A DNA stretch of 64,000 nucleotides from a phage. Positions 31,175 through 48,721 of this stretch are shown here, piece after piece. The number at the start of each line of letters is the position of its first letter. Within the stretch, counting starts at the first letter, position 1. The notes under the pieces are model-generated. The model saw nothing but the letters and a program-made list of their open reading frames with translations, did no database searches and was not told the DNA's origin. The stretch lies in NCBI GenBank assembly GCA_026066175.1, contig GCA_026066175.1_4721.2, one strand, 5' to 3'. Made by a program: the position numbers and the translations under genes.

Positions 31175-32008
31175 TTACTTAGCTTTCGGATTATACGGAC
31201 TAACATGTTGTTGCATTCGTTGGATTGTTTCGTAGTACGGGTTATAATGAGTGAACATATTGTTGTATGGATGGTAGCCGTAAAGCGCATTTTGCCTTGC
31301 CGGTGAGAAACCTTTTTGAGAAGGACGATTTGAATTTACTGCGAGCACGTAGTAAACCAAATTTTGATGGTCGAATGTTCCTTCGTTTTTGAAGGTGTCA
31401 GCATAGGCGCTTACCGCAGGAGCAAGTCTATCACCATCGGTTGTAATGATCGTACCATCCGGGTAAACTTCTCGAACGATACACCATGTTCCGATGAGAA
31501 CATCTTCGGGTGTCTTATTACTGTATCCGACTGTAACGGTAAGGTAAGTATCGAATCCTCCTGAGCGCTGCGGATGTCGATAAATTGGGCCAGTCGTTTC
31601 TGCTTTATCGGTTACGGTTTTTTCGTAAGGACACTTCTTGATTGCTTTGATGTAAATATCGGGAATCTCTAATACCGCCTTATCAGGATGAATTCTAAAA
31701 TGATTCTTGAGTAAGCCCAAAAGGTTGGTTGCTACCACGTCGTGAGGTAGTACCCAATAACTGGTAGGGGAGTCATCGCCGTCTCTCTTGGAGAAGATGA
31801 CTGCCTTGTTATCGTCGTCTGGTAGACTGAAGAAAACGATTGACTCAATAGGCATAGCCAGCTCACCACAACAGGGGTCAGCGGATAACACCCAATTGTA
31901 TTTGTTGTCCGTTTCGTATAAATGTTCTGTTCTGTCGATACTACGATCCTTCAATTGGATGTAGCGTTCACGTTGTTTCTTGGTTAATTTACGGTAGATA
32001 GTGGTCAT
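31175..32008 (-). CDS. hypothetical protein, paralogue family B
   Basis: 277-aa ORF with SD aaggag; shares the N-terminal MT(D/T)(I/V)Y(R/T)KL and the PIY(R/V)HP...YPDG(T/R)I motifs with 32094..32867. Confidence 0.65.
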   Translation of the reverse strand: MTTIYRKLTKKQRERYIQLKDRSIDRTEHLYETDNKYNWVLSADPCCGELAMPIESIVFFSLPDDDNKAVIFSKRDGDDSPTSYWVLPHDVVATNLLGLLKNHFRIHPDKAVLEIPDIYIKAIKKCPYEKTVTDKAETTGPIYRHPQRSGGFDTYLTVTVGYSNKTPEDVLIGTWCIVREVYPDGTIITTDGDRLAPAVSAYADTFKNEGTFDHQNLVYYVLAVNSNRPSQKGFSPARQNALYGYHPYNNMFTHYNPYYETIQRMQQHVSPYNPKAK

Positions 32009-32093
32009 GTTAAGCTCCTTGATTACGGTAAGGATGATTTCGGTTTTGTGATGATGGTAGGACCACTTTGTTTAGGATCCTACCAGTACGGGA

Positions 32094-32867
32094 TTATTCA
32101 TGATCAGTGTAGAAATGGTGAGGATAGCCGGAGTACGATCCTGCGTTACCGGCTATGGATTCTTTCTGGGAATCGACGACGAGCGCGTAGAACTGTCGGG
32201 AATTTGTTAACGTTGAGAAATAAGAGGAAAGGACTTTTTCGTTCAACGCATCGCACGGTAGACAGGTACGCCCACAGAACGTCGTAATACGGCCATCCGG
32301 ATAGATCTCACGGATCATACGCCATTCACCGATATCAACCGGCGATGGCGCTGCTACACCACCTGTTATCGTTAAATAACGATCATACGTGGTATGACAT
32401 TCTGGATGTACGTAAATTGGCTTATTGGCCTCAACTTCTTCAGGAGCATAGCGTCGACCGAGAAGTTCAATAACCTCCAGATAGATTGTAGGCAGATCGC
32501 AAAGAACCCCTTCCTCTTTACGTTTCTTCGTGATTCGAGGACGAACCTCATTGATAACGTAGGCGAGTTCATTCAGCGCTTCTTGCGCTGGTAGCACGAA
32601 TAAACGGTCCGGTTTGTCGGACAAGTCTTCATTTACGTAAACGTAACAAACATCGTCTTTAGGCGCGTAGAAGAAGCGAGAGACCTTAAAGGTTTCCGTA
32701 GTACGATAACCGAGACGCGTTTGGTCCTGCACCAGAGAAAATATCCAGCGACGTCCTTCGTCCTGTTCAATGATATCATTGAACATCTTTGTTTGATCAG
32801 GAAGTTGATATTCTTCCTGTAATTTAGCAAGTGCTTCATTATCCAGTTTGGTGTAAACATCAGTCAT
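32094..32867 (-). CDS. hypothetical protein, paralogue family B
   Basis: 257-aa ORF; related to the 31175..32008 product over its full length. Confidence 0.65.
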   Translation of the reverse strand: MTDVYTKLDNEALAKLQEEYQLPDQTKMFNDIIEQDEGRRWIFSLVQDQTRLGYRTTETFKVSRFFYAPKDDVCYVYVNEDLSDKPDRLFVLPAQEALNELAYVINEVRPRITKKRKEEGVLCDLPTIYLEVIELLGRRYAPEEVEANKPIYVHPECHTTYDRYLTITGGVAAPSPVDIGEWRMIREIYPDGRITTFCGRTCLPCDALNEKVLSSYFSTLTNSRQFYALVVDSQKESIAGNAGSYSGYPHHFYTDHE

Positions 32868-32894
32868 GATAGTATCCTCGATTAGTAAGGTTGG

Positions 32895-33299
32895 CTAGTC
32901 TATCTTAAGCCAGATTGATGGTAAATGGAAATAGACACCGTCGTCTATTTGTTTTTGTGTTAACGGGGTTGGAAGTTTAGTGATGATGTTGTCGATCGAT
33001 TCCTCAATGTCACTTGTTAGAACGTCGATGTGGTAATAGCGAGCGATGCGTCCGTTACGTTCTAGCCAAAACAGACGAACGAAATCACTATTTTTATTAA
33101 TCGCATTCATAAACACGATTTGATGAAGCAGGATCATTCTTGACGAGGGGTAATCGTCAGGACGCGGAGTCATCACCAGTTCCCAACGTTTCCGTCGCAC
33201 GCCTTTTTTGAATTGACTCGTTACATTTGAACCACTTTTACCTAAGTTTATAACAAATTGCTTTAGACGATACGGTGTGTTTCTGTAAATATCGGTCAT
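32895..33299 (-). CDS. hypothetical protein, paralogue family B (N-terminal-domain-only member)
   Basis: 134-aa ORF; N-terminus MTDIYRNTPYRLKQF and C-terminal ...HLPSIWLKID align with the first ~130 aa of the two longer paralogues and stop at the LP(S/T/D)IY(L/I)K domain boundary. Confidence 0.55.
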   Translation of the reverse strand: MTDIYRNTPYRLKQFVINLGKSGSNVTSQFKKGVRRKRWELVMTPRPDDYPSSRMILLHQIVFMNAINKNSDFVRLFWLERNGRIARYYHIDVLTSDIEESIDNIITKLPTPLTQKQIDDGVYFHLPSIWLKID

Positions 33300-33383
33300 T
33301 GATTATAGCTCCAGGTTATTATCACTAAGGTAATATAGTCGTGAAATAAACTGGAGTAATAGAAATAATAAGACGGCATAAGA

Positions 33384-33414
33384 CCCTCTCCCAACCCGGA
33401 AGGGAAGGGAGAGG
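33384..33414. terminator. conserved GNRA-capped hairpin element, copy 5
   Basis: gcataaga-ccctctccc-aa-ccc-ggaa-ggg-aa-gggagagg, 6 nt downstream of the stop of 33420..34787; identical over ~39 nt to copy 7. Confidence 0.6.
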
Positions 33415-33419
33415 AAGTA

Positions 33420-34787
33420 TTAAACGGTTGGACGAACGGTGTTGTCTTTTTCCGGTGCAAGCCAGAGTGTGACGGTACCGTGGCAGGTCCATTGGGGTTC
33501 ACGTACAGAAGAACCCGCCATCGTAACAGCGCAATCGGTACGCATAACAACGCCGTAAGCTTCGCAAAGGTTATTGTCTTGCATCCAAACAACTTTAGCA
33601 GGCATGCCAGGATACAGTAAATCCATGTTGGCATGTTCCCATACCAACTGCATCGTTCGACCGCGTAACCCAGCAGTATTACTTAATTCCCGCCAACGGT
33701 TATCCGTTACCCGGCCCATCCCTTTTGCTACCTTCACGTTATCACTACGTTCTTCCGTCACATACTCGCTTACGTTCACGGTACGACTGATGATCGTATC
33801 ACCGCCCTTCGATAACGTCATTCCCTGGCTCATCTGACTCGCTGAAACAAAGCGTCCACCCGCATTACCTAACAATGAAGCTGCGTTGCTGATATCGCTG
33901 ACCGACGCACCTCGTGTACACGCGATCTCCACGTATTTGTCACGATTGATCCAGGTATTTTCCATGCCGGGAAACATATCGGCCGGATAATTGTAAAAAA
34001 TCGCCGTACGTCGACCGTCGGAGAAACGGGTTTCGTCATACAGAGGGTAGATATACAAATACGGTGATTGGTAATAGCAACCAACGTCCGCTGAATAAAT
34101 ACCGACCTGGTTCTGGATCTTATCAACAAGATCCATCGCGTTGGTACCATGAGGAAGAATCAATAACTTGAACAAATCATTGTTATTCGGTGCGACAATA
34201 TCAACACCCTGCATTTTGAAGCCGGTATCCGCTTCAACAGCAGAAAGGATTTTACTGAATTCGAGTCGCAGTACATCCAGAACTTTCGATCCAGTATAGT
34301 TCTCACCGGTTTCTGACTGCATGAAGCTTTCAAGAACAGGATCGAACAACTGGAATTGAAGATCGACCATCTGCTCGTAATCTTTCTTCGCAGAATCGGT
34401 TGCAGTACGTTCATCGGTTGCGGACATACGACTGTCTACGGTGGTTAAACAAACTGCCCGATAGACATAAGCTTGTGCGGCATCGTCTACGGTTTGGCGT
34501 TGTCCACGCATCAGACTGTACGCCTGCACGATGACGCGCATTTTAAGTTGTTGCTGGTACGGTAAAATGTATTTTCCGTAACTGCCCGGAGGGAACTTTA
34601 CAGAGATATAAAGTTCATCTCCTGCGTTACGTTCATAGTCTCGATACGTGTGGACTTGAGTCACTAAAGGAACAGACACCGTCATTGACGGCGTGATTAA
34701 TTCCGCGGTGACTTTATACGCAACAGCAACTGCTTCCTGCGCAAATGTACCGATATACCGTCCTAACGGCGTCTGTTTGTAATCCAT
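33420..34787 (-). CDS. hypothetical virion protein
   Basis: 455-aa ORF with ATG start, followed by the hairpin element. Confidence 0.65.
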   Translation of the reverse strand: MDYKQTPLGRYIGTFAQEAVAVAYKVTAELITPSMTVSVPLVTQVHTYRDYERNAGDELYISVKFPPGSYGKYILPYQQQLKMRVIVQAYSLMRGQRQTVDDAAQAYVYRAVCLTTVDSRMSATDERTATDSAKKDYEQMVDLQFQLFDPVLESFMQSETGENYTGSKVLDVLRLEFSKILSAVEADTGFKMQGVDIVAPNNNDLFKLLILPHGTNAMDLVDKIQNQVGIYSADVGCYYQSPYLYIYPLYDETRFSDGRRTAIFYNYPADMFPGMENTWINRDKYVEIACTRGASVSDISNAASLLGNAGGRFVSASQMSQGMTLSKGGDTIISRTVNVSEYVTEERSDNVKVAKGMGRVTDNRWRELSNTAGLRGRTMQLVWEHANMDLLYPGMPAKVVWMQDNNLCEAYGVVMRTDCAVTMAGSSVREPQWTCHGTVTLWLAPEKDNTVRPTV

Positions 34788-35395: not shown

Positions 35396-36708
35396 GGTTC
35401 AATAGCTCCTGCTCGTAACAGCATAATAACGAACGGTGTGAAATAATAACGATCTAACGGAGAAAGCAGTGGTATAGCGTCAACCATCTGCTTCAGTGCC
35501 GGATGACTGATTGCCTTTTCATCAATCATGTCGCGCACCATACTTTCAATAATCGTCATTGGTGCTTGGTTGCGATAGAACGCCTCGGTGAAAACGTAGT
35601 ACGGGTCATCGGCGACCGACGGGAATAACGGAATGCCGTCATACTCCATTGAGGTAAGGTTGGTCACCAATGGGTTCGTCGGTGGTGTGCTTTCAGGAAC
35701 AGCCAACGTTTTACCTACATCCTCACCCAGCGACGTGGTCGCAGGCCATATACAGAACCGTGCGCCACTAAAACGAATTCCACCCGCCGCCGGATACTGA
35801 TAGAAACGCTTTGTTGACAACAGCGTGAATTTCACCGTCAACCGCGCCTCGTCTTCCCGACGTCCGTCCATTACCCATTCAAAGACAGAAATCGCATTCG
35901 CTTCCTGGCTGTCGTCTACGTTAAGACGTCCGAAGTTCCATGAAGGTTTTCCTTCAAGCGACGACCATAATTTCGTAAACGCGTTAACACACCAGGGATC
36001 GTAGGTTGCAGCATCTTGACCAGGAACAAGCAGTGTGTTGAGTTCACGGCTGTAGAATTCATGGTAATACGCGTGACAAAGTCCCAGTGCACGACGGAGA
36101 TAATCGTACTTACGATTGTATTTCTCCGTTGCCATTACGGGATGTTTTCCGTGCTTTAACTGGTCTTGGTCGTATAGCGTATCCTCAACGATTTTTGCTT
36201 CCAGTTCGATAAGCTGTTTTTCGTCAAGAATACGTTGGAAGGAAATATCGCATTCGTAAGCCGGTGCTAAGCTGATGTTCTTCGGCGTGATTCGGGTGAT
36301 CGTGTACACCGCGATACGATGATCGAGACCGGAGATTAACAGCATGTTACCTAAAAGAGGAACCGATACCGCCGGAAGTATACACGTACCCTCTGATTGA
36401 AAACGTGCGGTCCCGTTGTCGTACGACGGCGTCAATGATGACATTAACTTGATAGGGTAATGTCTGATGCGACGGTACTGCTGTTCAGCGATGTCTCGGT
36501 TAGCTTGAAAACTGCTTTGTTCATCATCGCGACCGAGAATCTGTTCGTAATAATCACATTCTACGGAATAACCGGATGCGTAATTCACTAACCCGATTTG
36601 ACTATTGTATTGCTCATCTACCACCGCAGAACGATAAACATCGTCGCGAGCCTTCGCGGGTTGTTGGGGGTTGATGATGGGTTTCGCGGGCTTCTTAGCG
36701 AGCGCCAT
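35392..36708 (-). CDS. hypothetical virion protein
   Basis: 438-aa ORF with ATG start; overlaps the upstream gene by 14 nt. Confidence 0.65.
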   Translation of the reverse strand: MALAKKPAKPIINPQQPAKARDDVYRSAVVDEQYNSQIGLVNYASGYSVECDYYEQILGRDDEQSSFQANRDIAEQQYRRIRHYPIKLMSSLTPSYDNGTARFQSEGTCILPAVSVPLLGNMLLISGLDHRIAVYTITRITPKNISLAPAYECDISFQRILDEKQLIELEAKIVEDTLYDQDQLKHGKHPVMATEKYNRKYDYLRRALGLCHAYYHEFYSRELNTLLVPGQDAATYDPWCVNAFTKLWSSLEGKPSWNFGRLNVDDSQEANAISVFEWVMDGRREDEARLTVKFTLLSTKRFYQYPAAGGIRFSGARFCIWPATTSLGEDVGKTLAVPESTPPTNPLVTNLTSMEYDGIPLFPSVADDPYYVFTEAFYRNQAPMTIIESMVRDMIDEKAISHPALKQMVDAIPLLSPLDRYYFTPFVIMLLRAGAIEP

Positions 36709-38260
36709 AGCGTTTCACTCCTACGATGGTACCGACAAGGATTCTCGGTACGAATAAACTACGATGTTTGAACCACGAAGCGGTTGTTGGGATACGTTTG
36801 ATGGCTTCGATAAGCCCGATTAGCGTATAGCACCCCCGACTGTTCTTCTTAGGCCAGTACTTTTTATCTAGACCTAATACTGCAAACAGTTCATCCACCA
36901 GATTGGGATAACAACACAACGCTTCAAGTGTTTCAACCTGTAACTGACTTAAATCTAACAGTATCGCTAGACGAACGTGGTAATCACTCCGTAGGTCTAA
37001 TGGATCTTTCGCTTCAAGATCACCAACGTCGGTTAATGTCCACGCGTCTCTTGCGTAGCGGTATTTACCCTTCCAAACCTCAAGGAAAAAAGGAGACCGG
37101 TAATGACATTTTGACCATTCTGGGTACTCACGGAACCACCGAACAAGATCGGGATGGAATTCACCTTCTTCGGCTAACGAGTCCAACGTCACCAACAGGT
37201 TAGGTTGTTCAGGATCGATGGCAAGCAGCGCGGTGAAAAGCGTGCTTGATGGAAGTTCGGTTTCCACACTTGATGGCGGTAGCCATTCATCCAGATCAGG
37301 ATACCGATACGCTTGAATCGATGCACCCTGCTCGGGCAAGAACGAATCACGAAGAATGTCCTGATACTGCACCACCATACCACCACGACGCGCACGGGAT
37401 TTATCACGCACCGAAAGGCTCGGTTTGTAAAGGTACTCTTCGGGGAGTATCTGTTGGTGTACTTGAACAGGATACCGCGCTACGATGTGTGTTGGCGTGT
37501 CGTATGTGTAACGGTAAGAGAAGGTTGCGTTGTACGAAGAACTGTTCTCATTCTTCTCGGGTTTCGGAGCGTCGGTGAAATCAAATTGACCAGAGATCTC
37601 TTCTTGCATTTCCCTGATAACCAATTTAACGCTCTTACCGTCACCTGCAACCGTCGTCATGGTGGTTGCGCGGTTGTCGAACCCGTCTCTAAGGTATTCG
37701 CTGAACTTATCCCCGTAACCCGCTATTGCTTCCCGGTGTGTATGAATAACTTTTAACAACATGAGAAACTGTGTTGGGATCGCATAGCTGTATTCGGCGC
37801 TAAGGAAGGCAGCGACGTGCTGACTTGTCAGCAAACGTTTCATGTCGTACCACCAACGTTCGGCGGTGACCTGATCCTCGAAACGTTTGGTGATTTGCAT
37901 GGTCGCAACCATCGTACTGTAAACAGGCACTAACGACACACCAAGGTTACGGTCTTCAAATACTGGAAGACTGTTTCGTTTGTAAACGGTATCGTACATG
38001 GACGCCTGTTCTTCAGGGACAACGTTAAGCTCGATTTGGATAAACCCGTCAGCAGGCCCCTTTACATCCTGATCAACAACTTGCGGTGGTTGCTCGTTCG
38101 CGGCGCTCATTTTAGCGTGAAGCGCTTCCCCTCGAAAAAGAATGTTCTCCCGACTATAATCCCACCCGCAAAGCTCGCTGATCTGCCGTAACACCGCGAT
38201 TGCAACCGGACGTGTTACCGTCGCGTATACGTCATTGATTTTTCGATCAAGTTTAGGCAT
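36695..38260 (-). CDS. hypothetical virion protein (start uncertain)
   Basis: The ATG at 38260 (MPKLDRK...) has SD gagga with a 9-nt spacer; the track start at 38287 is a GTG placed directly against an aaggag. Confidence 0.6.
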   Translation of the reverse strand: MPKLDRKINDVYATVTRPVAIAVLRQISELCGWDYSRENILFRGEALHAKMSAANEQPPQVVDQDVKGPADGFIQIELNVVPEEQASMYDTVYKRNSLPVFEDRNLGVSLVPVYSTMVATMQITKRFEDQVTAERWWYDMKRLLTSQHVAAFLSAEYSYAIPTQFLMLLKVIHTHREAIAGYGDKFSEYLRDGFDNRATTMTTVAGDGKSVKLVIREMQEEISGQFDFTDAPKPEKNENSSSYNATFSYRYTYDTPTHIVARYPVQVHQQILPEEYLYKPSLSVRDKSRARRGGMVVQYQDILRDSFLPEQGASIQAYRYPDLDEWLPPSSVETELPSSTLFTALLAIDPEQPNLLVTLDSLAEEGEFHPDLVRWFREYPEWSKCHYRSPFFLEVWKGKYRYARDAWTLTDVGDLEAKDPLDLRSDYHVRLAILLDLSQLQVETLEALCCYPNLVDELFAVLGLDKKYWPKKNSRGCYTLIGLIEAIKRIPTTASWFKHRSLFVPRILVGTIVGVKRYGAR

Positions 38261-38636
38261 CGATGTCGTCCTCGCTAATTTCCTCACCTCCTTGTTGTCG
38301 ATATCCGGTATAATGAATCAGACTGCTCTGTAGAAGCTCTTTAACGAGCCCTAGACGCGTTTTATCTGTTTCATTGGACGTTTCCATTAATGTTTCTATT
38401 TCGTTGTTTAAAACAGCGTATAGCGCTTCTAACGGCAATCCTTGGATGATTGGTTTGATGGTACCTTCCGGTAGTGCCGCAACAGGAATCTGCACGACGG
38501 TTTCGTGTGCGGTATGTGGGTTAATACGGCAAATATACATACCGGGTACTGAATGTCGCGGGCACGCCGCTACCAAGCATGTCTGTTGCTGCGCACCGTT
38601 AAGTGCGAGTGAAAGAAATTTTGCTTCACGTGTCAT
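38253..38636 (-). CDS. small hypothetical protein
   Basis: 127-aa ORF with ATG start; ends in an acidic tail EEISEDDIDA. Confidence 0.55.
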   Translation of the reverse strand: MTREAKFLSLALNGAQQQTCLVAACPRHSVPGMYICRINPHTAHETVVQIPVAALPEGTIKPIIQGLPLEALYAVLNNEIETLMETSNETDKTRLGLVKELLQSSLIHYTGYRQQGGEEISEDDIDA

Positions 38637-38682: not shown

Positions 38683-38716
38683 CATAAAGCCCACCCCGAA
38701 GGGCGGGCTGTTTATG
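38683..38716. terminator. hairpin cataa-agcccaccc-cgaa-gggcgggct-g-tttatg downstream of the 1127-aa gene
   Basis: 9-bp GC-rich stem (one mismatch) plus 5-bp A/T flanks that extend the stem, 9 nt after the stop at 38725; it has the same CATAA...TTATG flanks as the conserved element family. Confidence 0.5.
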
Positions 38717-38724
38717 CGTACGGA

Positions 38725-41700
38725 TTACTTGTAGGCACCGCAATGGGCTTTGATGAGGAAAAGCACCGCTTGCATCGGTTTATTGAACTGTTGCCATAAC
38801 GTTAATGCCGGATGGAACAGCCAATCTTCCAGGCCGAGAACAATACCGTAGTTAACGACATTATTAACATCGTTCTCAACGTTGAGTTCGCTATCCAGGA
38901 ATTTATCGATTGAACGCAGGGTCTGCATGGCGTTGTCAGCAATAAGCCAAGCTTCATGCGCTTCACGAGCCGCACGCAGCACTGCCTCCAGTTCGCTGAT
39001 AGTAGCTACCGGTAATTCCTCACTGGTGAGGTCGTCAGAAACCGTAAACTGGCGATTGATACCGGTGTAGATCCACTGCATCAGTTTCGCTGCTTCCTCG
39101 TTCGGGTTGTTACGCGTTGTCGCATAGGTCGCGCTCATCTTCACGATATGCGTTTCACCAAGATACGCTTTGGACCCAACGCCTTTACGATCGCTGTCTT
39201 TCCACGGTTGTACGGTAGCGACCATGAGCTTATCCCATTTCTGAATAGGAATACGCTTCAGACCAACAACCGATCCGGCCGATGTTTCGGACTGGTTGCT
39301 CTTCCGCACTTCGCTGAGCTCGCGATCGATAGCAACGATTAATTCACGCGTCATGTTACCAAGCATTTTGATTTCACCCAACGCAGCGATGAGCTTCTTC
39401 ACATCGGTAATAGGTTCACCACCGATGGTAAGATGACGGATGAAACGTTTCAGAATAATCCGTTCTGCTGCTGGGTTACCACGACGCGCTTTAGCCAACG
39501 CTTGCTGTGTTTCGGCGAACAGCTTATCCCATGGAGCCGTAGCGGCGGTATAGTAACGGTGGTTGGTTTCAATCCAGTTACCGATACGGTTGACCGCACT
39601 CTTAACGGTATCCATGAACCCTTCCATCGCAATTTCGGTGGCTTCGACGTTACCCTGGAAGTTATCAGGACCGATCTCACGCGCCGCCACCAGAATACCT
39701 TCCACCGCACTCACCGCATGCCGACCGATAGCCAGATTTCGCTGCGCTTCTTCAGCACGCTCAACGAATTCTACAACCGCAGGATCGTCAACGATTTCCG
39801 CCTCAGCAACAACACGAGTACCAGCATCGCCTTCCAGTGTCTCGATGGTGACAACCGGATCGTTTTCACCAGCAACATCCTGGTACTCTTCCTGTTTGAG
39901 ATCGCCGTTATCAGCCGCTGCGACAGCGGTGAGTATACGGACGGTAACATCACCGAGTTCTTTCGCAGCGAATCCGTAGACGGTACATGCTGTTGTCGCA
40001 AAGTTCATCAGTGTGCGCGTGCGTTTAACGATGTAACCAACATCGTAATCGTTGCCGCTCTTATCGATGTCGCGGATTAACCGTTCAGCTGTCTCCTGAA
40101 GCTGTGTAGCTGCTTTCAGAAGGTCTTCGTTAAACAGTTTCGTTGACGCATCGATCAGCATATCAACACTAACGTTAGACGGTACGGCATCATCCTGCTG
40201 TTTCATGGCGCTAAGTTCGTCACGGAACTTACGAATACCGTCTAAAGCGGCGTCGGCGCTATGTCCGAACGCGGCCACGCCAGACATTGTTGTTGCTGTC
40301 AGCATGTCCGTATCAGCGTTTGGACTTTCGCCTTCTTTAAGATCCTTCAGCTGGTCGAAGAACTTACGGGATGCTTCAGCGATACGTTTGCTGTCTTTGA
40401 CTGCGTTTACGATTTTATCAACCGATTTAGCATCGTTCGCAAGCAGCGTATCGAGTTTGTTCCATTCGACGTTGACTTTCTTTTCATCCGAAGTATTACT
40501 CGGCGGAGGAAGCAGTTTCATCACCGGTGCTGTGCGTTGTTCTTTGGTCAGCTTGTTGGCCTTCCCTTCGATTTTTTTCTTATTAACACCAAAGAGATTT
40601 TTCAAACGCGCCACGAGGGCTTTTAAGAACTTCGCGACCGCTTCGTAAACCGATTTCAGAATCTGTTTAAAGCGACCCGGCTGCTTTTCCCCGTCTTCCA
40701 GATTAAGATCGCTGTTCAGCGCGACATCAAGCTGTTTGTACGATTCCATGATGTATTCGTCTTTGATTTCAGGACGAATCTCGAAGCTTTCCATCGGACC
40801 TTCAGCCGGACGGAATTCCATTTTCAGTTCGCCTTGCAGAGTAGGGTCGACAATGGCGATCGCTTCACCCTGACCATCAGCGTTAAAGCGTTCAGCGTAA
40901 CGAGTACGGCGAACAATAACACTCTTATCCCCATCAAGACGACGTACCACCATGGTGCCAGGAATGTATGGTTGTTCTGTTTCAATGACGGTTACATCTG
41001 CCTCACCTTCGCCGAGAATAACCGATGCACGCTGTTCAACAACAGGAACATCTAATACGCCACGTGCTTCCAGCTCTTGATGAATTTCGAACGACTCTTG
41101 TTTCAGATCTTCATCTTCTTCGTTTTCGTCTTCATCACCGTCACCTTTGGTGTCTTCATTACCCTCGGTGGTTTTGGTGTCGGTAGCATCAGCGTCGGCG
41201 TCTGTGTTGGTAGGTTCTTCGGACGCGGGTTCGGTGGTGCTATCCTCGGTGGACGTTTCGTCGGCGTTATCGACGTCAACATCACCTTGCAGCTCCGTTT
41301 CTTGAGCAACGGCGTCGGCTTTCTGCTCACCAGTATTGCCGTCATTAGCGTCGACAACAGGTTGTTCGTCAGCGACGGTATCTTCAACCTTTTCTACTTT
41401 CTCCACAACACGTTTAATCACGGTGACTTTGATGGGTTCTTCCGTCGTTTTGGTTTCTGGCGTCGCCTCGGCTACCTCAGCTGCTGTTTCAGCAACAGGT
41501 TCTGCTTTTTCCGGTTCGACGACATTGCCTTTAACACCTTCGGTGGTTTCTGCAGGTTGCGTCGCCTGTTCGATTTGTGCCGGATTGGTTGGATCGATGG
41601 CGTTAGCCGCATCCTGAATCTTGTTCTTCAGGTTGTCACGGTCAGCGTTAACGGTCGGATCATTGGTCACTTTCGGTGCCGGTGTTTCGGTCGGTGCGTT

Positions 41701-42108
41701 TGCTGGATATGGGTTCTTCGGCTCTTCACCAGGTGCGGTCGGTACGGCGATCAGCACGAACGGCTGCACGTCGTTACCGTCTTCCATGGTAACGCCACCG
41801 TTGCTCGGTGTGAAACGAATTCGTAAACTACCATCGATAGGACGGGTCACAATAACAGCACGTACGACATCCTCGCCGTTCTCATCCGTGCTACGAATTA
41901 CGCGAACGGCATCATCAACAGTAGCCCCTTCCTCGAGCGTATCTGATTCGATCGTCGCTTCGATGCTGTCTGGCCGTGCCGCTGTAGGTAATGCGATCAC
42001 CTGCTCTTCTTTATCAGTAGAAAGCGTTGCTTTGACTTCGATCGGTGTATCGCCGCTTTCCAGGTTAAGATGCGACTTACGCATCAAATCAGCTAACGAT
42101 TTTTTCAT
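38725..42108 (-). CDS. large virion protein with long acidic low-complexity region and internal duplication
   Basis: 1127-aa ORF with SD gagga. Residues ~130-330 are T/E/D/A/P-rich (...TEDSTTEPASEEPTNTDADADATDTKTTEGNEDTKGDGDEDENEEDED...). Two related segments (VVRAVIVTRPIDGSLRIRFTPSNGG and MVVRRLDGDKSVIVRRTRYAERFNADG) flank the acidic region. Confidence 0.65.
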   Translation of the reverse strand: MKKSLADLMRKSHLNLESGDTPIEVKATLSTDKEEQVIALPTAARPDSIEATIESDTLEEGATVDDAVRVIRSTDENGEDVVRAVIVTRPIDGSLRIRFTPSNGGVTMEDGNDVQPFVLIAVPTAPGEEPKNPYPANAPTETPAPKVTNDPTVNADRDNLKNKIQDAANAIDPTNPAQIEQATQPAETTEGVKGNVVEPEKAEPVAETAAEVAEATPETKTTEEPIKVTVIKRVVEKVEKVEDTVADEQPVVDANDGNTGEQKADAVAQETELQGDVDVDNADETSTEDSTTEPASEEPTNTDADADATDTKTTEGNEDTKGDGDEDENEEDEDLKQESFEIHQELEARGVLDVPVVEQRASVILGEGEADVTVIETEQPYIPGTMVVRRLDGDKSVIVRRTRYAERFNADGQGEAIAIVDPTLQGELKMEFRPAEGPMESFEIRPEIKDEYIMESYKQLDVALNSDLNLEDGEKQPGRFKQILKSVYEAVAKFLKALVARLKNLFGVNKKKIEGKANKLTKEQRTAPVMKLLPPPSNTSDEKKVNVEWNKLDTLLANDAKSVDKIVNAVKDSKRIAEASRKFFDQLKDLKEGESPNADTDMLTATTMSGVAAFGHSADAALDGIRKFRDELSAMKQQDDAVPSNVSVDMLIDASTKLFNEDLLKAATQLQETAERLIRDIDKSGNDYDVGYIVKRTRTLMNFATTACTVYGFAAKELGDVTVRILTAVAAADNGDLKQEEYQDVAGENDPVVTIETLEGDAGTRVVAEAEIVDDPAVVEFVERAEEAQRNLAIGRHAVSAVEGILVAAREIGPDNFQGNVEATEIAMEGFMDTVKSAVNRIGNWIETNHRYYTAATAPWDKLFAETQQALAKARRGNPAAERIILKRFIRHLTIGGEPITDVKKLIAALGEIKMLGNMTRELIVAIDRELSEVRKSNQSETSAGSVVGLKRIPIQKWDKLMVATVQPWKDSDRKGVGSKAYLGETHIVKMSATYATTRNNPNEEAAKLMQWIYTGINRQFTVSDDLTSEELPVATISELEAVLRAAREAHEAWLIADNAMQTLRSIDKFLDSELNVENDVNNVVNYGIVLGLEDWLFHPALTLWQQFNKPMQAVLFLIKAHCGAYK

Positions 42109-42123
42109 AAAACGTTGTTCCTC

Positions 42124-43227
42124 TTAAAAGTAATATTTCAGCGCCTCGCGAGAGACGTCAAGCATAGCCGCCGTTGAGTTCGTGAAGAACTCGGCATAGC
42201 CCACAAGCGGCACCTTGATCCACGCGGTATACGCTGTAAGGTATCGAGAAAGGGCTACCATAGCATCATCAGAAGCTGTAATGGATAACTGACCTTGTTG
42301 ACGATACACATCGTTCAGTTTTGCTTGCAGGTTCCCTGCGATCTCAAGTAATTCGTTGGCGTACTTTTTACGATGGTACGTAATAAGCAGATCAACACCG
42401 GTATTTACCGATTCGAGTAAAACGCCAATCTGCTCCAACGACGGCATGGTTACAACCATATCACGCTCAACAGACACGACGTCCTGAACTTCAAATCGTG
42501 CTGATTGAATCGCGAGAGATTGTTGGATTGCTCCAGAACCCGTTGCGGTAACCTGATCAAGTCGTAGCATCCGGTTACCTAACAACGTCGTGTTAACCAG
42601 CCGCGATTCATTCAACGCACTGTACACCTTGTTCAACAGCGTGTGTGCATCACGATTAATCACATCGATTAATGCGGTATCCGTCTGTTTTAAGATGATG
42701 TCAAGCGCTCTGTCTAACGTGTTTGCGAACTGTTTGAAGTCATCACGGAACGACGTTGACAACAGGTATTCTGCGATCTTCAGGTTTTGTTTGTATAACG
42801 TGTTTCCGGTGGTGAAGTCGAACCCGAAACTGTTTCCATAACGCAAATGTGGTGCGAGCGTGGGTGAGGCTTCAAAACTTTGCGCGATGGGTTTATGTCC
42901 AACCGCTTTCGTGTATTGACGACGGATATTACTCAGCTCGATTTGCAACGCACGACTGCGGTCGATATACCGTGCGATGAAAGCAGTGATATTCCGCAAC
43001 GTTGTCCAAATCGCATCGATGATCGCTTTGATGATTTTCATCGCAAGCTGGTTGTATGATTCCAGGGTAAGGAGATCAGCGCTTTCTGTAGCATAACCGG
43101 TTGCCAGAGCGCCGCCCGCTTGCTGATAAATAAGCTGATGGATTTGTCGTTGTGTTGCCGTCTCAGGTAGAGGTAAGGTTTTTAACAAGCTTAAGGCTTG
43201 GATTTGTCCATCATTGGTCTGCAGCAT
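42124..43227 (-). CDS. virion protein, paralogue family C (head-internal/ejection-type protein candidate)
   Basis: The ATG at 43227 (MLQTNDGQ...) has SD gagga with an 8-nt spacer; the track start at 43290 would overlap the upstream gene by 80 nt. Shares the central A..A(L)..W....I helix region with 43211..48721 genes. Confidence 0.55.
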   Translation of the reverse strand: MLQTNDGQIQALSLLKTLPLPETATQRQIHQLIYQQAGGALATGYATESADLLTLESYNQLAMKIIKAIIDAIWTTLRNITAFIARYIDRSRALQIELSNIRRQYTKAVGHKPIAQSFEASPTLAPHLRYGNSFGFDFTTGNTLYKQNLKIAEYLLSTSFRDDFKQFANTLDRALDIILKQTDTALIDVINRDAHTLLNKVYSALNESRLVNTTLLGNRMLRLDQVTATGSGAIQQSLAIQSARFEVQDVVSVERDMVVTMPSLEQIGVLLESVNTGVDLLITYHRKKYANELLEIAGNLQAKLNDVYRQQGQLSITASDDAMVALSRYLTAYTAWIKVPLVGYAEFFTNSTAAMLDVSREALKYYF

Positions 43228-44512
43228 TGCGGGTTTCCTCAAGTTCGAGATGTGCATCAAGGTAATCGTTAAGACCATCGATGACGTCACAGACCGTTAA
43301 CAGGAATCGAGCAAAAGCAACGGCCTGGAAGCCAACGACATTACGAGCAATGCTAACACGTTGCACAATGGCGGTTGAAGCCGCTTGGTCATCGTAGATC
43401 TGATGCAACAAACGTTCGTAGGGCTGAATCCATTCATCTTGATCAGCGAGGCTTGCCTCAAGACAACGTTTAAATTCCAATTGACGTAGCGTTGACCATA
43501 AGGTGCTTAATGCGCCGATGATGGCGTTGGTTCCATCAAGAACATCGTTCAAGGGCAGGAAACGGAATCCGTCCTTCGCTGACTGGAAAGGAATGGCTTC
43601 CCATACAACGCTAAACTGTGCGCCAGTATAATCATCGACGTTCAGTACTTTTAACTGCGAAGCGCCAACCGGTGCGTTTATGATGACGTCATTGGTTTCA
43701 GTGTTCTCCAACGGCTTTTCACACAACGCGTCGTTGATCGCCTTAAGGATGTTTTCCCAACATGCCTCATTTTCAGCCGCGATGTTATCTTTGTTCTCCA
43801 ACACCGGTGCTTTTAATAACCGCATCAGTAACGGATCAAGCTGACGATGCCATGCCGCCAGTATCCCGGTATTTGTCATGATGTTTTCTGCGGTCTGTTG
43901 TAAATCCGCAACGCTGCTTACCGCACCGCCTCTTGGATGGAGATATCGCCAGTTATACGGGAAGTTCTCCCAGAAGGCATTATCTTCGTTAACCGTATAT
44001 GCAGGAAGATTTTTCAGTTTTACGGCTTTCTTCAGCAACGGTTTTACTTGACGCACAAAACGACGATAACTGCGGTTGCAAATATCAATGGCGTAGCGAT
44101 ACAACTCGTTCATGTAAAGCCATAACGCTCGGGTTGCCTCTTTCGCGGTTTTGTCAAAACTTTCCATGTTAAGACTCATCCCACCTGAGGTTTCCTCTTC
44201 CATCCCATCGATGATCTGATTGGGATCCATTCCCATCCCAGCCGCTGCGGTTGAAGCGATATGTTTGATGGTATTAATATCACGTTCTTCAACTTCGGTC
44301 ATGTTAGGGACAATATCTAACCGGAGTTTGTTTAATGTTTGAAGGTGTTGTTCACCTTCCTTCATGACGGTGTTCGTTTCATCGAGTGAGCGAAGCTGAT
44401 TTTCGATATTACCGACATCGAGGATGTTGCCAGCGACACCGAATGATTCTACAGGTTCATCATCTATCCCTTGAAACAACGCGGTCATGGGTTGTTGCAA
44501 CACGTTTTCCAT
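43211..44512 (-). CDS. virion protein, paralogue family C
   Basis: 433-aa ORF with SD aggag; DINTIKHIASTAAAGMGMDPNQ...TAKEATRALWLYMNEL aligns with DVALIRQIASTSAANLGMSDED...KERAAQALYAVWVTI in 44666..45958. Confidence 0.65.
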   Translation of the reverse strand: MENVLQQPMTALFQGIDDEPVESFGVAGNILDVGNIENQLRSLDETNTVMKEGEQHLQTLNKLRLDIVPNMTEVEERDINTIKHIASTAAAGMGMDPNQIIDGMEEETSGGMSLNMESFDKTAKEATRALWLYMNELYRYAIDICNRSYRRFVRQVKPLLKKAVKLKNLPAYTVNEDNAFWENFPYNWRYLHPRGGAVSSVADLQQTAENIMTNTGILAAWHRQLDPLLMRLLKAPVLENKDNIAAENEACWENILKAINDALCEKPLENTETNDVIINAPVGASQLKVLNVDDYTGAQFSVVWEAIPFQSAKDGFRFLPLNDVLDGTNAIIGALSTLWSTLRQLEFKRCLEASLADQDEWIQPYERLLHQIYDDQAASTAIVQRVSIARNVVGFQAVAFARFLLTVCDVIDGLNDYLDAHLELEETRNAADQ

Positions 44513-44568
44513 TTAGGACTCCTACGTAGGAAAGATCATGGTGGGTGATCATGTCCACCATTGTGCGC

Positions 44569-44591
44569 GGTATGGAGCGTGGCTCCATACC
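44569..44591 (-). promoter_or_regulatory. perfect 10-bp stem / 3-nt loop hairpin in the 5' leader of 43211..44512
   Basis: ggtatggagc-gtg-gctccatacc, about 60 nt upstream of the start codon. Confidence 0.4.
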
Positions 44592-44626
44592 CAAGTCAAA
44601 AGATAACCGGATATTAACGGCATATA

Positions 44627-44658
44627 CCCTCCTCCTTCCCTTCCGGGTTGGAGGAGGG
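44627..44658. terminator. conserved GNRA-capped hairpin element, copy 6 (canonical sequence on the minus strand)
   Basis: Plus strand reads ccctcctcc-tt-ccc-ttcc-ggg-tt-ggaggaggg, the reverse complement of the canonical element; 8 nt downstream of the stop of 44666..45958. Confidence 0.6.
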
Positions 44659-44665
44659 ATTTAGC

Positions 44666-45958
44666 TTATTTTGCTTTCTCGGTTACCGCGTTGAAGTATT
44701 TCGCTGCAGCAAATACCGCCTCCGCATACTGACGGACAGAGGCACGGAGGATCTTGGTTCCTAATACCGAGCTTAAACGAGCCATTTCTGTTACAGCCGC
44801 GATATAAGGACGTACGGTTTCACGATCGGCCTCAGGTAACTTGTCGAGCATTTCGCCCCACTTCGTTTTGATTTTCATTCCGTTGAGTTTAGCATCTCGT
44901 CCTACAGTGCTTGCCAAACTTTCAACTTTATGCAAATATGTCGGCTCCACCCTATGGAATGCCTTCAGATATGCCGTCAATGCGCTTTTCAGCTCATTCC
45001 CATCGTGGAAAATATTCACATTTTCGATATTATCTGTTACGGTGTCAACAACTTCGATATGAACATCCTTCACCAAAGCACATGCTTTAATGACATCTTT
45101 CTCTTTTTCTAACGCATCCAGCCCTTTAACGACATATTGTTTTCCGCCGCTTTCTGGAAGTCTGAACGCTCTCAGCGCAGCTTTAGTGGTCTGAAGATAC
45201 TTATCTAGAACACTATCGAGCGTTGTTAAATCAGTTAGGACATTGATGTCGTAGTTGATGTCACCGATCATAGTAAATAGGAAATCTGACGTCGCCGCAC
45301 TTGCAGCTAATTGTTCGATATGTTTGCTAACGGATGTTGCATTAACCGATTTTGCGTTCGGGAACATATTAACCATATTCCCGGTAGGCTTCTCTAGCTG
45401 CTTGATCTGACGTTCCCCTTTATTGACTTCGGATGCGATTTTGGTGATCTCAGCATAAGCCAGAACGAGATTCTTGAAAAGCGTCTGGAGCAACTTAAAC
45501 AATTGTTCAGCAATATTCGCGATGGTGACCCAGACCGCATACAGTGCTTGCGCTGCACGTTCCTTGAAGCCTTCCAGCACGATAGCTTGGCCTTCGACTA
45601 ACTTATCATTAGCCTGGAACATGTCTTCATCAGACATACCCAGGTTAGCTGCCGATGTTGATGCGATTTGGCGGATAAGCGCAACGTCGCTGGCGCGGGC
45701 TTCTGTGATCGTTGATGCGATTACGTAGGCGGTATCTTCCAACGTTGCTGATGTCCGTACAGCGATTTCAGCCAGTTCGCTGTTCTCGTCGATGCTGTCG
45801 TCGGTATGTCGAATCACCAACTCAACTTCATCTTCCTCAATTTCTGCGTTGGGGTCTTGTTGCTCGGGTGAAATCGATGCAAGAACATCTTCAGCGCTGA
45901 GTAGTGCGAGTTCAAAAGCGTTTTTATTGATGTTATCAAAAAGAGAAATACGGGCCAT
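44666..45958 (-). CDS. virion protein, paralogue family C
   Basis: 430-aa ORF with SD aaggaa; acidic N-terminal region (PEQQDPNAEIEEDEVELV...) followed by the conserved family core. Confidence 0.65.
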   Translation of the reverse strand: MARISLFDNINKNAFELALLSAEDVLASISPEQQDPNAEIEEDEVELVIRHTDDSIDENSELAEIAVRTSATLEDTAYVIASTITEARASDVALIRQIASTSAANLGMSDEDMFQANDKLVEGQAIVLEGFKERAAQALYAVWVTIANIAEQLFKLLQTLFKNLVLAYAEITKIASEVNKGERQIKQLEKPTGNMVNMFPNAKSVNATSVSKHIEQLAASAATSDFLFTMIGDINYDINVLTDLTTLDSVLDKYLQTTKAALRAFRLPESGGKQYVVKGLDALEKEKDVIKACALVKDVHIEVVDTVTDNIENVNIFHDGNELKSALTAYLKAFHRVEPTYLHKVESLASTVGRDAKLNGMKIKTKWGEMLDKLPEADRETVRPYIAAVTEMARLSSVLGTKILRASVRQYAEAVFAAAKYFNAVTEKAK

Positions 45959-45967
45959 GTGGGTTCC

Positions 45968-47287
45968 TTAACCTTTAGTATAGGCTTTAACGAGGGTGTT
46001 AATAAAAGAAGTTAATGCACGAAGGTACTGATAAGCGAATTGGTTTTCAATACGTTGCTCTTTACTGCAGAGCATGATCGCCCGTTTCACCAGTTTGGGA
46101 TATATTTCAACGTACGGTTTATAACTGTCGTCGTATTGCTGCGTATCGAATTTTTTCATGGCTTCATACTGCAGCTTTTCCATCTGACGAACACGAGCAC
46201 GATCGAAGATCTTGGAGAACGCACGTCCGCGTTGGGTGATCGCAATCAGATCTTTCGCTAACGAAAGCGGTTTAACGCTACGGAAATCATCCGGTGTGGG
46301 TAGCGTGTAGTTTTCTGGATCGCTATCCCATTCGGTCGCTGCGTCTTCAACCACGACATCCAATTTCAGATAATTTTCAATCGCGGCAAGAACGTTGTCT
46401 TTTGCCGCATTGAATTCTTTTAAGAACACAGCAGCATTAACATAACGAATACGTTTACCAGAAACCGCCGGTGTAACCACATCACTCCCGTCAACGGAAC
46501 CTCTGTTCTCCAATGCGGTTTTCAGTGTATCCAGAAACGACATGTAGTCCACAGGAAGTTGGTCAACACGATCTAAACGAAAATCGAATGTCTTCACACC
46601 AAGACCGGTGGTAAGGTCGTAACGTGCACCGCCTGCCATGATTCGGTTATAGTTCTCAAGGTTCTTCTTGATTTCGTCAACACCACCGACATGATTGCGA
46701 TTGGAAAAGAGGATACGCCAACCGGCTTTGAACGGCACGGTAACCGTTTCTTCTTTACCTTTCGGAAGTTTTTCTAACGCTTTGATCGCATTCTGGAAAT
46801 TGCGGGTTTCATCATAGATGATCCGCGTTAATCCTTCCAGGACAGCAGCCAGTTGCAGAACAATATCAACAATGATATCCCAGATCTTTTTCAACGCTCG
46901 AACGACGGTGTCTTTGAACCCTTCAACAACCAACGCTTCACCCACGGTGATGTTGTCAGTAGGACGAAGCATTGCATCGGAAGGCAGACCTAAAGCGATT
47001 GAGGCGGATTCTTGAACGTTACGTACCAATGCAACGTCGCTGTAGTTAGCCGTCTCAATCGTTGGTGCAACATCAAAACTGATTTCTCGTAATGCTTCAA
47101 CAGCAGGGAAAGCACGATCGAGCGCCTCTTCATGTTCATCGATGTTCGCTAAACGGAGTTCAACCCCATCAGCGTCAATGACTTCGGTGGTAGGCTCTGC
47201 TGCAAGCGCCTCGGCAACGATGGGATCCTTCTCAAAAGCTTCAAGGCTAATATCGCCTTGTGTAGCAAATAGTGGTATACGTACCAT
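45968..47287 (-). CDS. virion protein, paralogue family C
   Basis: The ATG at 47287 (MVRIPLFATQGDISLEAF...) is preceded by tggaga; the track start at 47311 is a TTG with no SD. Collinear with 44666..45958 (RI(S/P)LF...DVAL(I/V)R...EGFK(E/D)). Confidence 0.65.
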   Translation of the reverse strand: MVRIPLFATQGDISLEAFEKDPIVAEALAAEPTTEVIDADGVELRLANIDEHEEALDRAFPAVEALREISFDVAPTIETANYSDVALVRNVQESASIALGLPSDAMLRPTDNITVGEALVVEGFKDTVVRALKKIWDIIVDIVLQLAAVLEGLTRIIYDETRNFQNAIKALEKLPKGKEETVTVPFKAGWRILFSNRNHVGGVDEIKKNLENYNRIMAGGARYDLTTGLGVKTFDFRLDRVDQLPVDYMSFLDTLKTALENRGSVDGSDVVTPAVSGKRIRYVNAAVFLKEFNAAKDNVLAAIENYLKLDVVVEDAATEWDSDPENYTLPTPDDFRSVKPLSLAKDLIAITQRGRAFSKIFDRARVRQMEKLQYEAMKKFDTQQYDDSYKPYVEIYPKLVKRAIMLCSKEQRIENQFAYQYLRALTSFINTLVKAYTKG

Positions 47288-47335
47288 GTGATGTCTCCAG
47301 TAATAATTCAAAAGATAAATCAGCGCAGCATAAGA

Positions 47336-47367
47336 CCCTCTCCCAACCCGGAAGGGAAGGGAGAGGG
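47336..47367. terminator. conserved GNRA-capped hairpin element, copy 7
   Basis: gcataaga-ccctctccc-aa-ccc-ggaa-ggg-aa-gggagaggg-aatatg, 23 nt downstream of the stop of 47390..48721. Confidence 0.6.
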
Positions 47368-47389
47368 AATATGTCAGTTTACTAACTGA

Positions 47390-48721
47390 TTATTTCTGTG
47401 CTGCGTCAGCCGGTTTTTCAGCCGCCTGGCCGCTGTACTCTTTCAGCATTTTAGCAACGCCGTCCAGTACTGCGTTACCCGCCTGAACACCGTACTTCAT
47501 CAGGCTAACCTGCGGGTTGATGTAGCAAGAACGTGCGTCTTTCAGTGCAGACAGCACAGTTTTAACACGCTGTTTCTCTTGAGCAGAAACTTCGCCTTTC
47601 TTAGCCAGTTCAGCTTCCATATCGTCGCCGAATTTAACAGCGTCTTTGAAGCCCTGGGATTTCTTACCGATGTTACCTTTCGCAGCCAGCAGTTTATCGG
47701 CCAGCGCTTCAACGCTGTTGATCACCGCAGCCATCTGGTTCGGGGACAGTACATCGGCTTCCTGTTCCATCACGGTGATTGCGTTATTGCCGCGTTCCCA
47801 GGTCACTTTACCGTCGGTGGTTTTGAATCCCCAACCGTTCGGACCTTTCACATCAGCGATCGCAGGCGCGTTCAGTTTGTCGGTGTACTCAGTATGTGAT
47901 TTAGACTTAACGAGTTCAACGAATTTATCCGCACGATCGTCAGCCGCCTTCATTGCTTTCTCGAAGGTATCTGCGATTTTGCTTGATGCACCAGCGATAT
48001 CGATATCGCCAATATAACCGGTAACAGTGGTGCCCAGTTTAACTTTCGCGTTCTTCGGAGAGCCTTTACGTTTGGCGATCATTTCTTTCAGTTTAGCCGC
48101 ACGTGCTTTCAGTTTGGTTGCACCGTCGAAGATACGATCGATGAACTTCACGAAGTTGTCCCAGGTGGATTTCAGGAAGTTCTTAATTGCAGTCCACAGT
48201 TTCTGCCACCATTTCTGTTCTTCCAGGAAGATCATGTTGGTTGCATCATAACGGGAAGCGGAACCGCCGAAGCTTTCGAAGGAAGGCATGGTTTCCGGCA
48301 GTTTGAAGCCGATAGTACCACACAGACGTTTCAGATTACGCATGTGTTCTTGCGCGGTCTGTGCAGACATACCACCGTCTTTCAGATAGCTTTCGGTCGC
48401 AACAACGGTTTCCGTCATTTCGTCCATGGCTTCGTCCATGGCTTCAGCGGTTTCGTCGTCTTTTGCGATTTCGATAACAACAGCATCAACCTGCTCGATG
48501 TCACCACGGACTTCGATAGCCAGTTCGGTTTCAGCAGCGGTGTCTTCAGCGATTTCAGCACGTTCGGTCAGTTCAGCCACAACGGTTTCATCGCCTGCAG
48601 CAGCATCGGCTGCCGGTTCTGCTTCAACGGTTGCCGCAGCTTCCGGATCGATCTCAGCAGCCAGTTGAACCAGCTGTGCGTTAGATGGATTTGCGACAAG
48701 ACGATCAAAAATAGAAGGCAT
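47390..48721 (-). CDS. abundant virion protein, paralogue family C, with acidic AxE-rich N-terminal region (propeptide-like)
   Basis: 443-aa ORF with SD taaagga; strongly optimised codon usage; N-terminal ~100 aa are acidic and alanine-rich with many A-x-E triplets (AAEIDPEAAATVEAEPAADAAAGDETVVAELTERAEIAEDTAAETELAIE...). Confidence 0.65.
   Translation of the reverse strand: MPSIFDRLVANPSNAQLVQLAAEIDPEAAATVEAEPAADAAAGDETVVAELTERAEIAEDTAAETELAIEVRGDIEQVDAVVIEIAKDDETAEAMDEAMDEMTETVVATESYLKDGGMSAQTAQEHMRNLKRLCGTIGFKLPETMPSFESFGGSASRYDATNMIFLEEQKWWQKLWTAIKNFLKSTWDNFVKFIDRIFDGATKLKARAAKLKEMIAKRKGSPKNAKVKLGTTVTGYIGDIDIAGASSKIADTFEKAMKAADDRADKFVELVKSKSHTEYTDKLNAPAIADVKGPNGWGFKTTDGKVTWERGNNAITVMEQEADVLSPNQMAAVINSVEALADKLLAAKGNIGKKSQGFKDAVKFGDDMEAELAKKGEVSAQEKQRVKTVLSALKDARSCYINPQVSLMKYGVQAGNAVLDGVAKMLKEYSGQAAEKPADAAQK

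Follow-up and report, generated by a model that had tools for sequence, protein, structure and literature searches.

What does the longest gene at the end of a phage paralogue array contribute to the particle? The question is raised by a 64,000-nucleotide stretch of phage DNA (the window; NCBI GenBank assembly GCA_026066175.1, contig GCA_026066175.1_4721.2), in which positions 38725-42108 encode a protein of 1127 amino acids, the window protein. An earlier interpretation from the letters alone, the sequence-only reading, had reported this open reading frame (ORF) with its strand unstated; the ORF is real and runs on the minus strand, from 42108 to 38725, the plus strand of the same interval being riddled with stops. 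The same reading proposed a scaffold-like or inner-body component and left room for a tape-measure-like role. The analysis presented here points to a likely answer: a capsid-packaged cargo protein of the PF12699 operon, a terminal member resembling phiKZ gp97, built as a chain of units, probably trimmed, and probably ejected together with the DNA.

The inner-body proposal is borne out by three lines of evidence. The gene is the full-length orthologue (94.5% nucleotide and 97% amino acid identity) of Goslar_00053 (gp53; QBO63846 / YP_009820738) of Escherichia phage vB_EcoM_Goslar, a nucleus-forming jumbo phage (Goslarvirus; "Chimalliviridae" in the available text of a 2026 preprint), and according to that text purified virions contain ~330 copies of gp53, identified by 132 peptides that cover 63% of the chain (Goslar preprint, 2026). 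The C-terminal 378 residues, compared alone with PF12699, match over residues 809-1062 (254 residues, profile positions 72-318) with E=1.7e-5 and 24.6 bits, the Pfam gathering score being 27 bits. Finally, the gene occupies the slot of phiKZ gp97. The preprint text likewise lists gp53 as a member of PF12699 ("phiKZ internal head protein"), with its role unknown (Goslar preprint, 2026).

The operon and its last gene

Close relatives of the window protein are numerous, and more than 100 near-identical orthologues (P0001-P0109) are found on 230-250-kb contigs from E. coli and Salmonella assemblies and from metagenomes. There is also an uncultured sister lineage (P0110-P0119), whose proteins have ~30% identity to the window protein; it is syntenic on a 259-kb metagenomic contig, and its only relative in the phage collection is Goslar, at 67% nucleotide identity. 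Goslar gp53 and the window protein share length class, neighbours and terminator, and their few differences fall chiefly in the acidic region and in the 5' part of the helical module described below. The gene and its immediate surroundings comprise the following features.

38725..42108, minus strand: the whole coding sequence, 1127 aa, with ATG at 42108 and stop TAA at 38727-38725; orthologue of Goslar gp53 (Goslar_00053)
42119..42125, minus strand: Shine-Dalgarno-like AAGAGGA, 10 nt 5' of the ATG, read from the sequence
38684..38709, minus strand: terminator-like hairpin AGCCCGCCC-TTCG-GGGTGGGCT followed by TTAT, at the operon end
42124..48721, minus strand: five upstream paralogues of ~370-450 aa, the equivalents of Goslar gp54-gp58

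The position directly 3' of a paralogue array, as the sequence-only reading had it, is confirmed by these five same-strand genes, three of which match PF12699 (69.9, 26.8 and 19.4 bits). The Shine-Dalgarno-like site shares bases with the stop codon of the last paralogue, and the hairpin, which is GC-rich and carries a short T-tract, lies at the position homologous to a putative terminator annotated in Goslar. The gene is the last of the internal-protein operon. A gene for a gp91-like vertex protein precedes the array, and neck and head-tail joining genes follow the window gene; this order (vertex protein, PF12699 paralogues, window gene or its counterpart, neck genes) is the same in the window, in Goslar, in the sister contig (L002) and in phiKZ, so that the gene fits an operon position of the PF12699 type. 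It also fits phiKZ gp97 in position and layout, since it stands before the equivalents of gp98-101 (521-530, 438, 201 and 455 aa), and phiKZ gp98-101 match Goslar gp51-48 in size.

Copy number and gene location also decide on the tape measure. Only the length (1127 aa) and the helical C-terminal two thirds would suit a tail tape-measure protein, of which a few copies per virion would be expected instead of ~330; the gene lies within the head internal-protein operon and outside the tail module, the 465 N-terminal residues are β-rich or disordered, and no tape-measure profile is matched in Pfam or PHROGs. This role is excluded for practical purposes on copy number and location.

A chain of units

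The precursor can be divided into seven consecutive parts, in which a slash marks a candidate junction.

42058..42108, minus strand: N-terminal leader, residues 1-17 (MKKSLADLMRKSHLNLE/SG), with a junction motif at its end; similar to the leaders of phiKZ gp92-95 and gp97
41734..42057, minus strand: β-rich segment copy 1, residues 18-125, low-confidence strands, with the invariant VTME109/DG at its end
41089..41733, minus strand: acidic disorder-type linker, residues 126-340, ending DLKQE338/SF
40714..41088, minus strand: β-rich segment copy 2, residues 341-465, with GPME440/SF and YIME455/SY
39862..40713, minus strand: helical module A, residues 466-749, starting LNLE471/DG with an amphipathic helix and ending DLKQE740/EY
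39622..39861, minus strand: propeptide-like start of the C-terminal unit, residues 750-829, ending IAME829/GF
38728..39621, minus strand: C-terminal domain, residues 830-1127, predicted to be helix-rich; the PF12699-like match extends over 809-1062

The sequence-only reading described two related segments around a ~200-residue polyacidic region. From the window protein alone the relationship is weak: Smith-Waterman comparison of segments 1-128 and 341-465 gives z 1.9-2.7 (7-51 per 500-1000 shuffles reach the observed score), and hhalign gives P=0.09. Profiles of both segments built from both lineages match with P=0.0042 over 83 columns, and cross-lineage comparisons reach z 2.9-4.6. In the sister orthologue P0111 an alignment of the two segments extends over ~120 residues at 29% identity (z=6.0-6.2, 0/2000 shuffles, BLASTP E=8e-4). 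The duplication, marginal in the window protein and significant once the sister lineage is added, is thus real but old. Each repeat unit has a leader-like start (MRN..LKxE followed by S or G) and an end of the type xME followed by D or S, and both copies are predicted by AlphaFold2, with low confidence, to be β-rich. Copy 2 of the sister lineage stands after the helical modules and directly before the C-terminal unit, whereas in the window protein it precedes the helical module. The segments do not resemble the propeptides of gp54-58 (z<1.4) and match no Pfam or PHROG family.

The disordered character of the linker stood up, the uniformly polyacidic one did not. Residues 126-340 contain 60 D+E against 17 K+R and only 2 aromatics, are enriched in T/A/P/E/D and fall on the disordered side of the charge-hydropathy plot. 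With a net charge of -43 this is the most net-negative 215-residue stretch in any frame of the 64-kb window (best-placed 215-aa window -50; mean -5.9, sd 8). AlphaFold2 predicts coil, with the per-residue confidence score pLDDT at 24-34, and a single helix at 154-170. The charge is distributed unevenly: residues 251-340 are 38% D+E, and residues 126-250 are rich in P/T/A/E and include conserved islands. These islands, KNPYPANAPTE (131-141) and VVDANDGNTGEQKA..ETELQG (251-275), may be binding motifs; strain-variable, indel-prone stretches lie at 201-225 and 276-325. The conserved VVDANDGNTGE island was also considered as a calcium-binding loop and rejected, its spacing matching neither the EF-hand nor the DxDxDG motif.

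Relationship to PF12699

The C-terminal unit (residues 750-1127) is nearly invariant among Goslar-like phages and carries the family signal. Besides the Pfam match, its best PHROG is annotated 'internal head protein' (E=0.0043), and in a tblastn search four of the five phages with weak matches (E 0.4-2) contribute alignments that start at the IAME/GF junction, in genes of Vibrio and Photobacterium jumbo phages annotated 'internal head protein' in RefSeq. Compared with Goslar-type gp55-57, the unit aligns in register around the junction (P=0.005). A leader or propeptide of the PF12699 type, with a glutamate junction followed by an amphipathic helix, is present at 468-505 and at 826-853, and the leader MKKSLADLMRKSHLNLE/SG is like those of phiKZ gp93 (MSLLKMLDKLSLE/S), gp95 (..LDSLE/D) and gp97 (..VASLE/N).

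The whole window protein gives no Pfam match even at E<=1 and no PHROG match. Searches of the Protein Data Bank by sequence with three queries returned nothing meaningful, and tblastn of 50,697 phage records, with the whole protein and with the C-terminal unit as queries, yielded Goslar only, apart from matches with E of at least 0.4. Residues 466-1127 are predicted by AlphaFold2 to be helical; the full-length model is poor (pLDDT 39), and the Foldseek search made with it is meaningless.

A side observation concerns annotation practice. Whole-protein hmmscan misses PF12699 both in the window protein and in phiKZ gp97 (L006, 3883-6333), and finds it in their isolated C-terminal pieces, at 24.6 bits in the former and at 54.2 bits in the C-terminal 397 aa of the latter. 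Long acidic low-complexity regions mask the family in routine whole-protein annotation of these two proteins, and this is a practical warning for those who rely on hmmscan of complete chains.

Junction motifs and probable processing

The borders between units carry a recurrent motif. The pattern h-x-h-E/[SDGN], defined post hoc, occurs at E17, E109, E455, E471 and E829, that is five times against 0.74 expected (4/2000 shuffles). PME440/SF, LKQE338/SF and LKQE740/EY are further candidates. Several of these motifs are invariant across both lineages, which are only ~30% identical, and a junction motif followed by an amphipathic helix opens the mature domain in the phiKZ and Goslar paralogues as well. 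The conserved border motifs h-x-h-E/(S/D/G) and DLKQE/ look like prohead-protease sites, so that the protein is probably trimmed or cut in head maturation; judged from its sequence, cleavage would probably take place at the junction motifs. Published rules for prohead proteases are S/A/G-x-E in phiKZ and A-x-E in SPN3US. In the virion data the Goslar major capsid protein is found without its first 157 residues, and G-C-E/S and S-E-E/L are located at 148-153, from which it follows that an E-specific prohead protease is active in this phage.

The peptides listed for Goslar virions cover the N-terminal segment, the acidic region, module A and the C-terminal domain. Their peak areas, among the peptides listed, are as follows (window numbering for the junction).

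Module A: 287,000
C-terminal domain: 179,000
Acidic region: 79,000
First β-rich segment: 11,000
Residues 764-782: 1,040
Peptide spanning the E829/G830 junction: 541

Peptides of residues 750-829 are ~100-fold weaker than those of neighbouring regions, peak intensity being a poor proxy for abundance, and this suggests that the propeptide-like start is removed and that the acidic region is retained in the virion.

The same data bear on the scaffold-like role, that of a core protein which organises prohead assembly and is then degraded and expelled, with no role in the mature virion. The low signal of 750-829 would fit partial removal, long acidic disordered regions with multiple protease-type motifs are typical of assembly cores, and no classical scaffold gene is evident in the operon. 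However, purified mature virions contain the orthologue in abundance (~330 copies, 63% coverage), and no scaffold profile is matched in Pfam or PHROGs. Since all major parts of the protein are found in mature virions, a scaffold in the classical sense is very unlikely.

The variable helical module

The sister lineage has modules of ~290 aa that are homologous to module A (hhalign P=1.3e-4, 148 columns in register). There the modules (P0110-P0119; L002 10001-14128) are arranged in tandem, one to three per protein, and belong to four types with 21-36% mutual identity; five architectures (T1, T2-T1, T3-T1, T2-T3-T1 and T4-T3-T1) yield protein lengths of 1089-1670 aa. Within the Goslar-like lineage the variation is concentrated in a single stretch.

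40009..40383, minus strand: hypervariable core of module A, residues 576-700, defined on 108 close orthologues

Entropy across these 108 orthologues is 0.64-0.72 in the core and below 0.1 elsewhere. The core occurs as discrete allele types, and one group is ~23-33% identical over residues 560-715, with flanks ~98% identical. The rate of synonymous substitution (dS) rises from 0.13-0.25 to 0.65 or saturation (3-fold or more), and the ratio of non-synonymous to synonymous substitution (dN/dS) is 0.13-0.25; the alleles are therefore old and have been moved by recombination. Recent positive selection is ruled out as the cause by the same dN/dS and raised dS, and a diversity-generating retroelement by the lack of any template repeat in the window.

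Structurally, AlphaFold2 models residues 546-734 mostly at pLDDT 65-92. A Foldseek search with the module returned no match at E<=0.001, the best being jumbo-phage virion proteins (E 0.005-0.25). Comparison by hhalign of module A with the C-terminal domain, and of either with single paralogues, is not significant (P 0.02-0.7); the module A family matches the internal-protein alignment exactly at the junction and amphipathic helix element (P=7.5e-5, 36 columns). Built from the sister-lineage modules, a jackhmmer profile reached neither module A nor the paralogues. Given the non-significant hhalign results, a reading of module A as a second PF12699 domain draws on the shared junction element, the weak Foldseek matches and position.

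We tentatively offer, as a rather doubtful proposal, that module A serves as an exchangeable cassette of cargo whose diversity is maintained in the long term. It would be either an ejected anti-defence or host-manipulating effector, or an epitope recognised by Juk-like host sensors of ejected inner-body proteins, which the phage would then have to keep varying. If so, module A would be what the host first encounters of the ejected protein in the early-infection vesicle.

Family membership is ordinary; the modular variability is the noteworthy part. Family, virion presence and synteny of the orthologue are known from earlier publications. What appears to be new at the descriptive level is the ancient duplication, the layout in several units, the conservation of the junction motifs, the variation of module A in alleles and cassettes and the masking of PF12699; the available text of the preprint mentions neither the duplication nor a second helical module, and describes neither junction motifs nor allelic variation (Goslar preprint, 2026). 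The window protein represents no new family; it is a dissected example, in which one module is exchanged as a whole between otherwise near-identical phages and the parts on either side of it (leader, β-rich repeats, junction motifs and C-terminal unit) are conserved. Whether the abundant PF12699 proteins packaged by nucleus-forming jumbo phages work within the capsid or within the early-infection vesicle is an acknowledged question.

Proposed packaging and fate

In the proposed pathway, the window protein, as the last and largest product of the chimallivirus operon for internal head proteins (PF12699; phiKZ gp92-97, Goslar gp53-58), would be synthesised late, and hundreds of copies would be taken up by the prohead. 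Each would enter as a precursor chain consisting of a leader with a β-rich segment, the acidic linker, a second leader-like motif with its β-rich segment, the variable helical module and a complete internal-protein unit (propeptide and helix-rich domain). The protein would reside inside the DNA-filled capsid and then most likely be expelled with the genome into the early-infection vesicle. The acidic linker would most likely act as a flexible DNA-repelling spacer, keeping the cargo soluble and mobile beside the packed DNA. Orthology, synteny, architecture, duplication, composition and motif conservation are established, and the virion presence of the orthologue is known from the literature; cleavage at the junction motifs, ejection and the role of the acidic region we infer. 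Ejection has been demonstrated for phiKZ gp90, 93 and 95.

Several findings weigh against a packaged and ejected PF12699 cargo. The family match lies below the gathering score and depends on scanning the C-terminal piece by itself, and the C-terminal unit of the sister lineage has no PF12699 match. A HMMER profile of the unit searched against 1.84 billion representative proteins recovered its own three clusters, from its own two lineages; with no further relatives in this search, the link of the window protein to the PF12699 family is remote. The hhalign comparisons of the unit with the paralogue alignments are only suggestive (P=0.005-0.014), and its AlphaFold2 model is of low confidence (pLDDT mostly 25-60). 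With regard to processing, most junction motifs misfit the published protease rules at P3, and only IAME829 fits well. The detected peptide across E829/G830 means that cleavage there is incomplete, expected post-cleavage peptides starting with D are absent among the Goslar peptides listed, several expected peptides from well-represented regions are likewise missing among them, and the intensities carry the limit given above. As to fate, the available preprint text reports no ordered inner body in Goslar and ejection of Goslar gp58 (Goslar preprint, 2026). Ejection has also been shown for phiKZ gp97, and not for gp53.

The main rival is a capsid-retained structural protein that lines the inner surface, for example around the vertex-binding complex, stabilises or helps to assemble the T=27 shell and stays after ejection, as phiKZ gp89 and gp162 stay with the capsid. 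In phiKZ, gp93 and gp162 are cleaved between an N-terminal part that binds to the inside of the capsid and the helix-rich domain, and the Goslar map, as described in the accessible preprint text, contains an unassigned helical-bundle density by gp65 at the vertices that is 'reminiscent of the PF12699 fold'. However, the same text assigns gp53 to no density (Goslar preprint, 2026), the positional counterpart phiKZ gp97 is injected, and a hypervariable module subject to cassette swapping would be unexpected in a lattice-bound element. We regard retention in the capsid as unlikely, and packaged cargo as the preferred reading.

Other features of the window

Several long ORFs (147-249 aa) run antisense to the gene on the plus strand (39433-40080, 40205-40648, 41077-41826 and 41621-42127) and are probably by-products of the codon composition of the minus-strand gene. 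In the equivalent of gp54 (42124-43290, minus strand), the ORF has a GTG start, shares 80 nt with the end of the preceding gene and encodes 388 aa; as the Goslar annotation gives 368 aa, the true start is probably a downstream ATG.

Compared with Goslar (L001), DNA identity is 64-86% across the paralogue genes at 42124-48721, with a minimum of 64-69% near 45200-47000. It is mostly 93-98% in the window gene (83% in the 300-nt bin 40400-40700) and 89-99% in the neck genes just downstream (35900-38600). On these identities, the array of putative packaged cargo as a whole is the fast-diverging part of the region. Further along, window positions ~31400-33500 (ORFs 31175-32008, 32094-32867 and 32895-33299, minus strand) have no blastn match in the corresponding 27-kb Goslar stretch and probably represent a gene replacement or insertion.

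Two more minus-strand ORFs, 9380-10285 (MEYSEILGLE/SK) and 62589-63899 (MSLLQRVYGHDELTME/AI), have leader-like starts ending in h-x-h-E followed by S or A, as in the leaders of internal proteins. They may encode further protease-processed head proteins, the pattern being a loose one that 5 of the 44 putative genes carry.

Many of the contigs with near-identical orthologues (P0001-P0109) belong to assemblies submitted for isolates of Salmonella enterica or E. coli. Goslar-like genomes thus appear to travel along with isolates from clinics and surveillance, whether in a carrier state, by pseudolysogeny or as contamination.

Comparison with known systems

The internal proteins IPI-III of phage T4 work in a similar way. 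A short N-terminal leader, the capsid-targeting sequence, is removed at (L/I)-x-E by the prohead protease, and hundreds of copies are packed with the DNA and ejected into the host. Their repertoire is strain-variable, and IPI* is an anti-restriction factor. They are small and basic, whereas the window protein is large, acidic and multi-module, and we know of no homology between them.

A functional analogue is provided by the ejection proteins gp53 and gp54 of Salmonella phage SPN3US, which lose propeptides of 125-137 residues, these propeptides being cut at several sites in turn.

The canonical PF12699 proteins (phiKZ gp92-96, Goslar gp54-58) share with the window protein the operon and, as predicted for the latter, a propeptide of ~80-170 residues with a glutamate-type junction and a helix-rich mature domain, and they are present in heads at high copy number, like Goslar gp53. 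They are single units of 370-550 aa; by contrast, the window protein comprises about two and a half units plus an acidic linker, and only its last unit scores for PF12699, below threshold.

The positional counterpart is the inner-body protein phiKZ gp97 (PHROG 27812/27483). The two have no detectable pairwise similarity (best BLASTP E=0.2, in low-complexity sequence only), and the gp97 PHROGs are absent among the PHROG matches of any segment of the window protein. The acidic region of gp97, a protein of 816 aa, is one uninterrupted stretch of ~420 aa (~20-440) followed by PF12699, compared with residues 126-340 in the window protein; gp97 shows no sign of an extra helical module, and no duplicated β-rich segments are visible in it by eye. 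Both genes, however, are the last and longest of their arrays, and gp97 has a comparable leader ending SLE/ and junctions NLE/DY and SLE/SF before an amphipathic helix. In phiKZ, gp97 is packaged, proteolysed and injected; it co-localises with gp93 and is dispensable.

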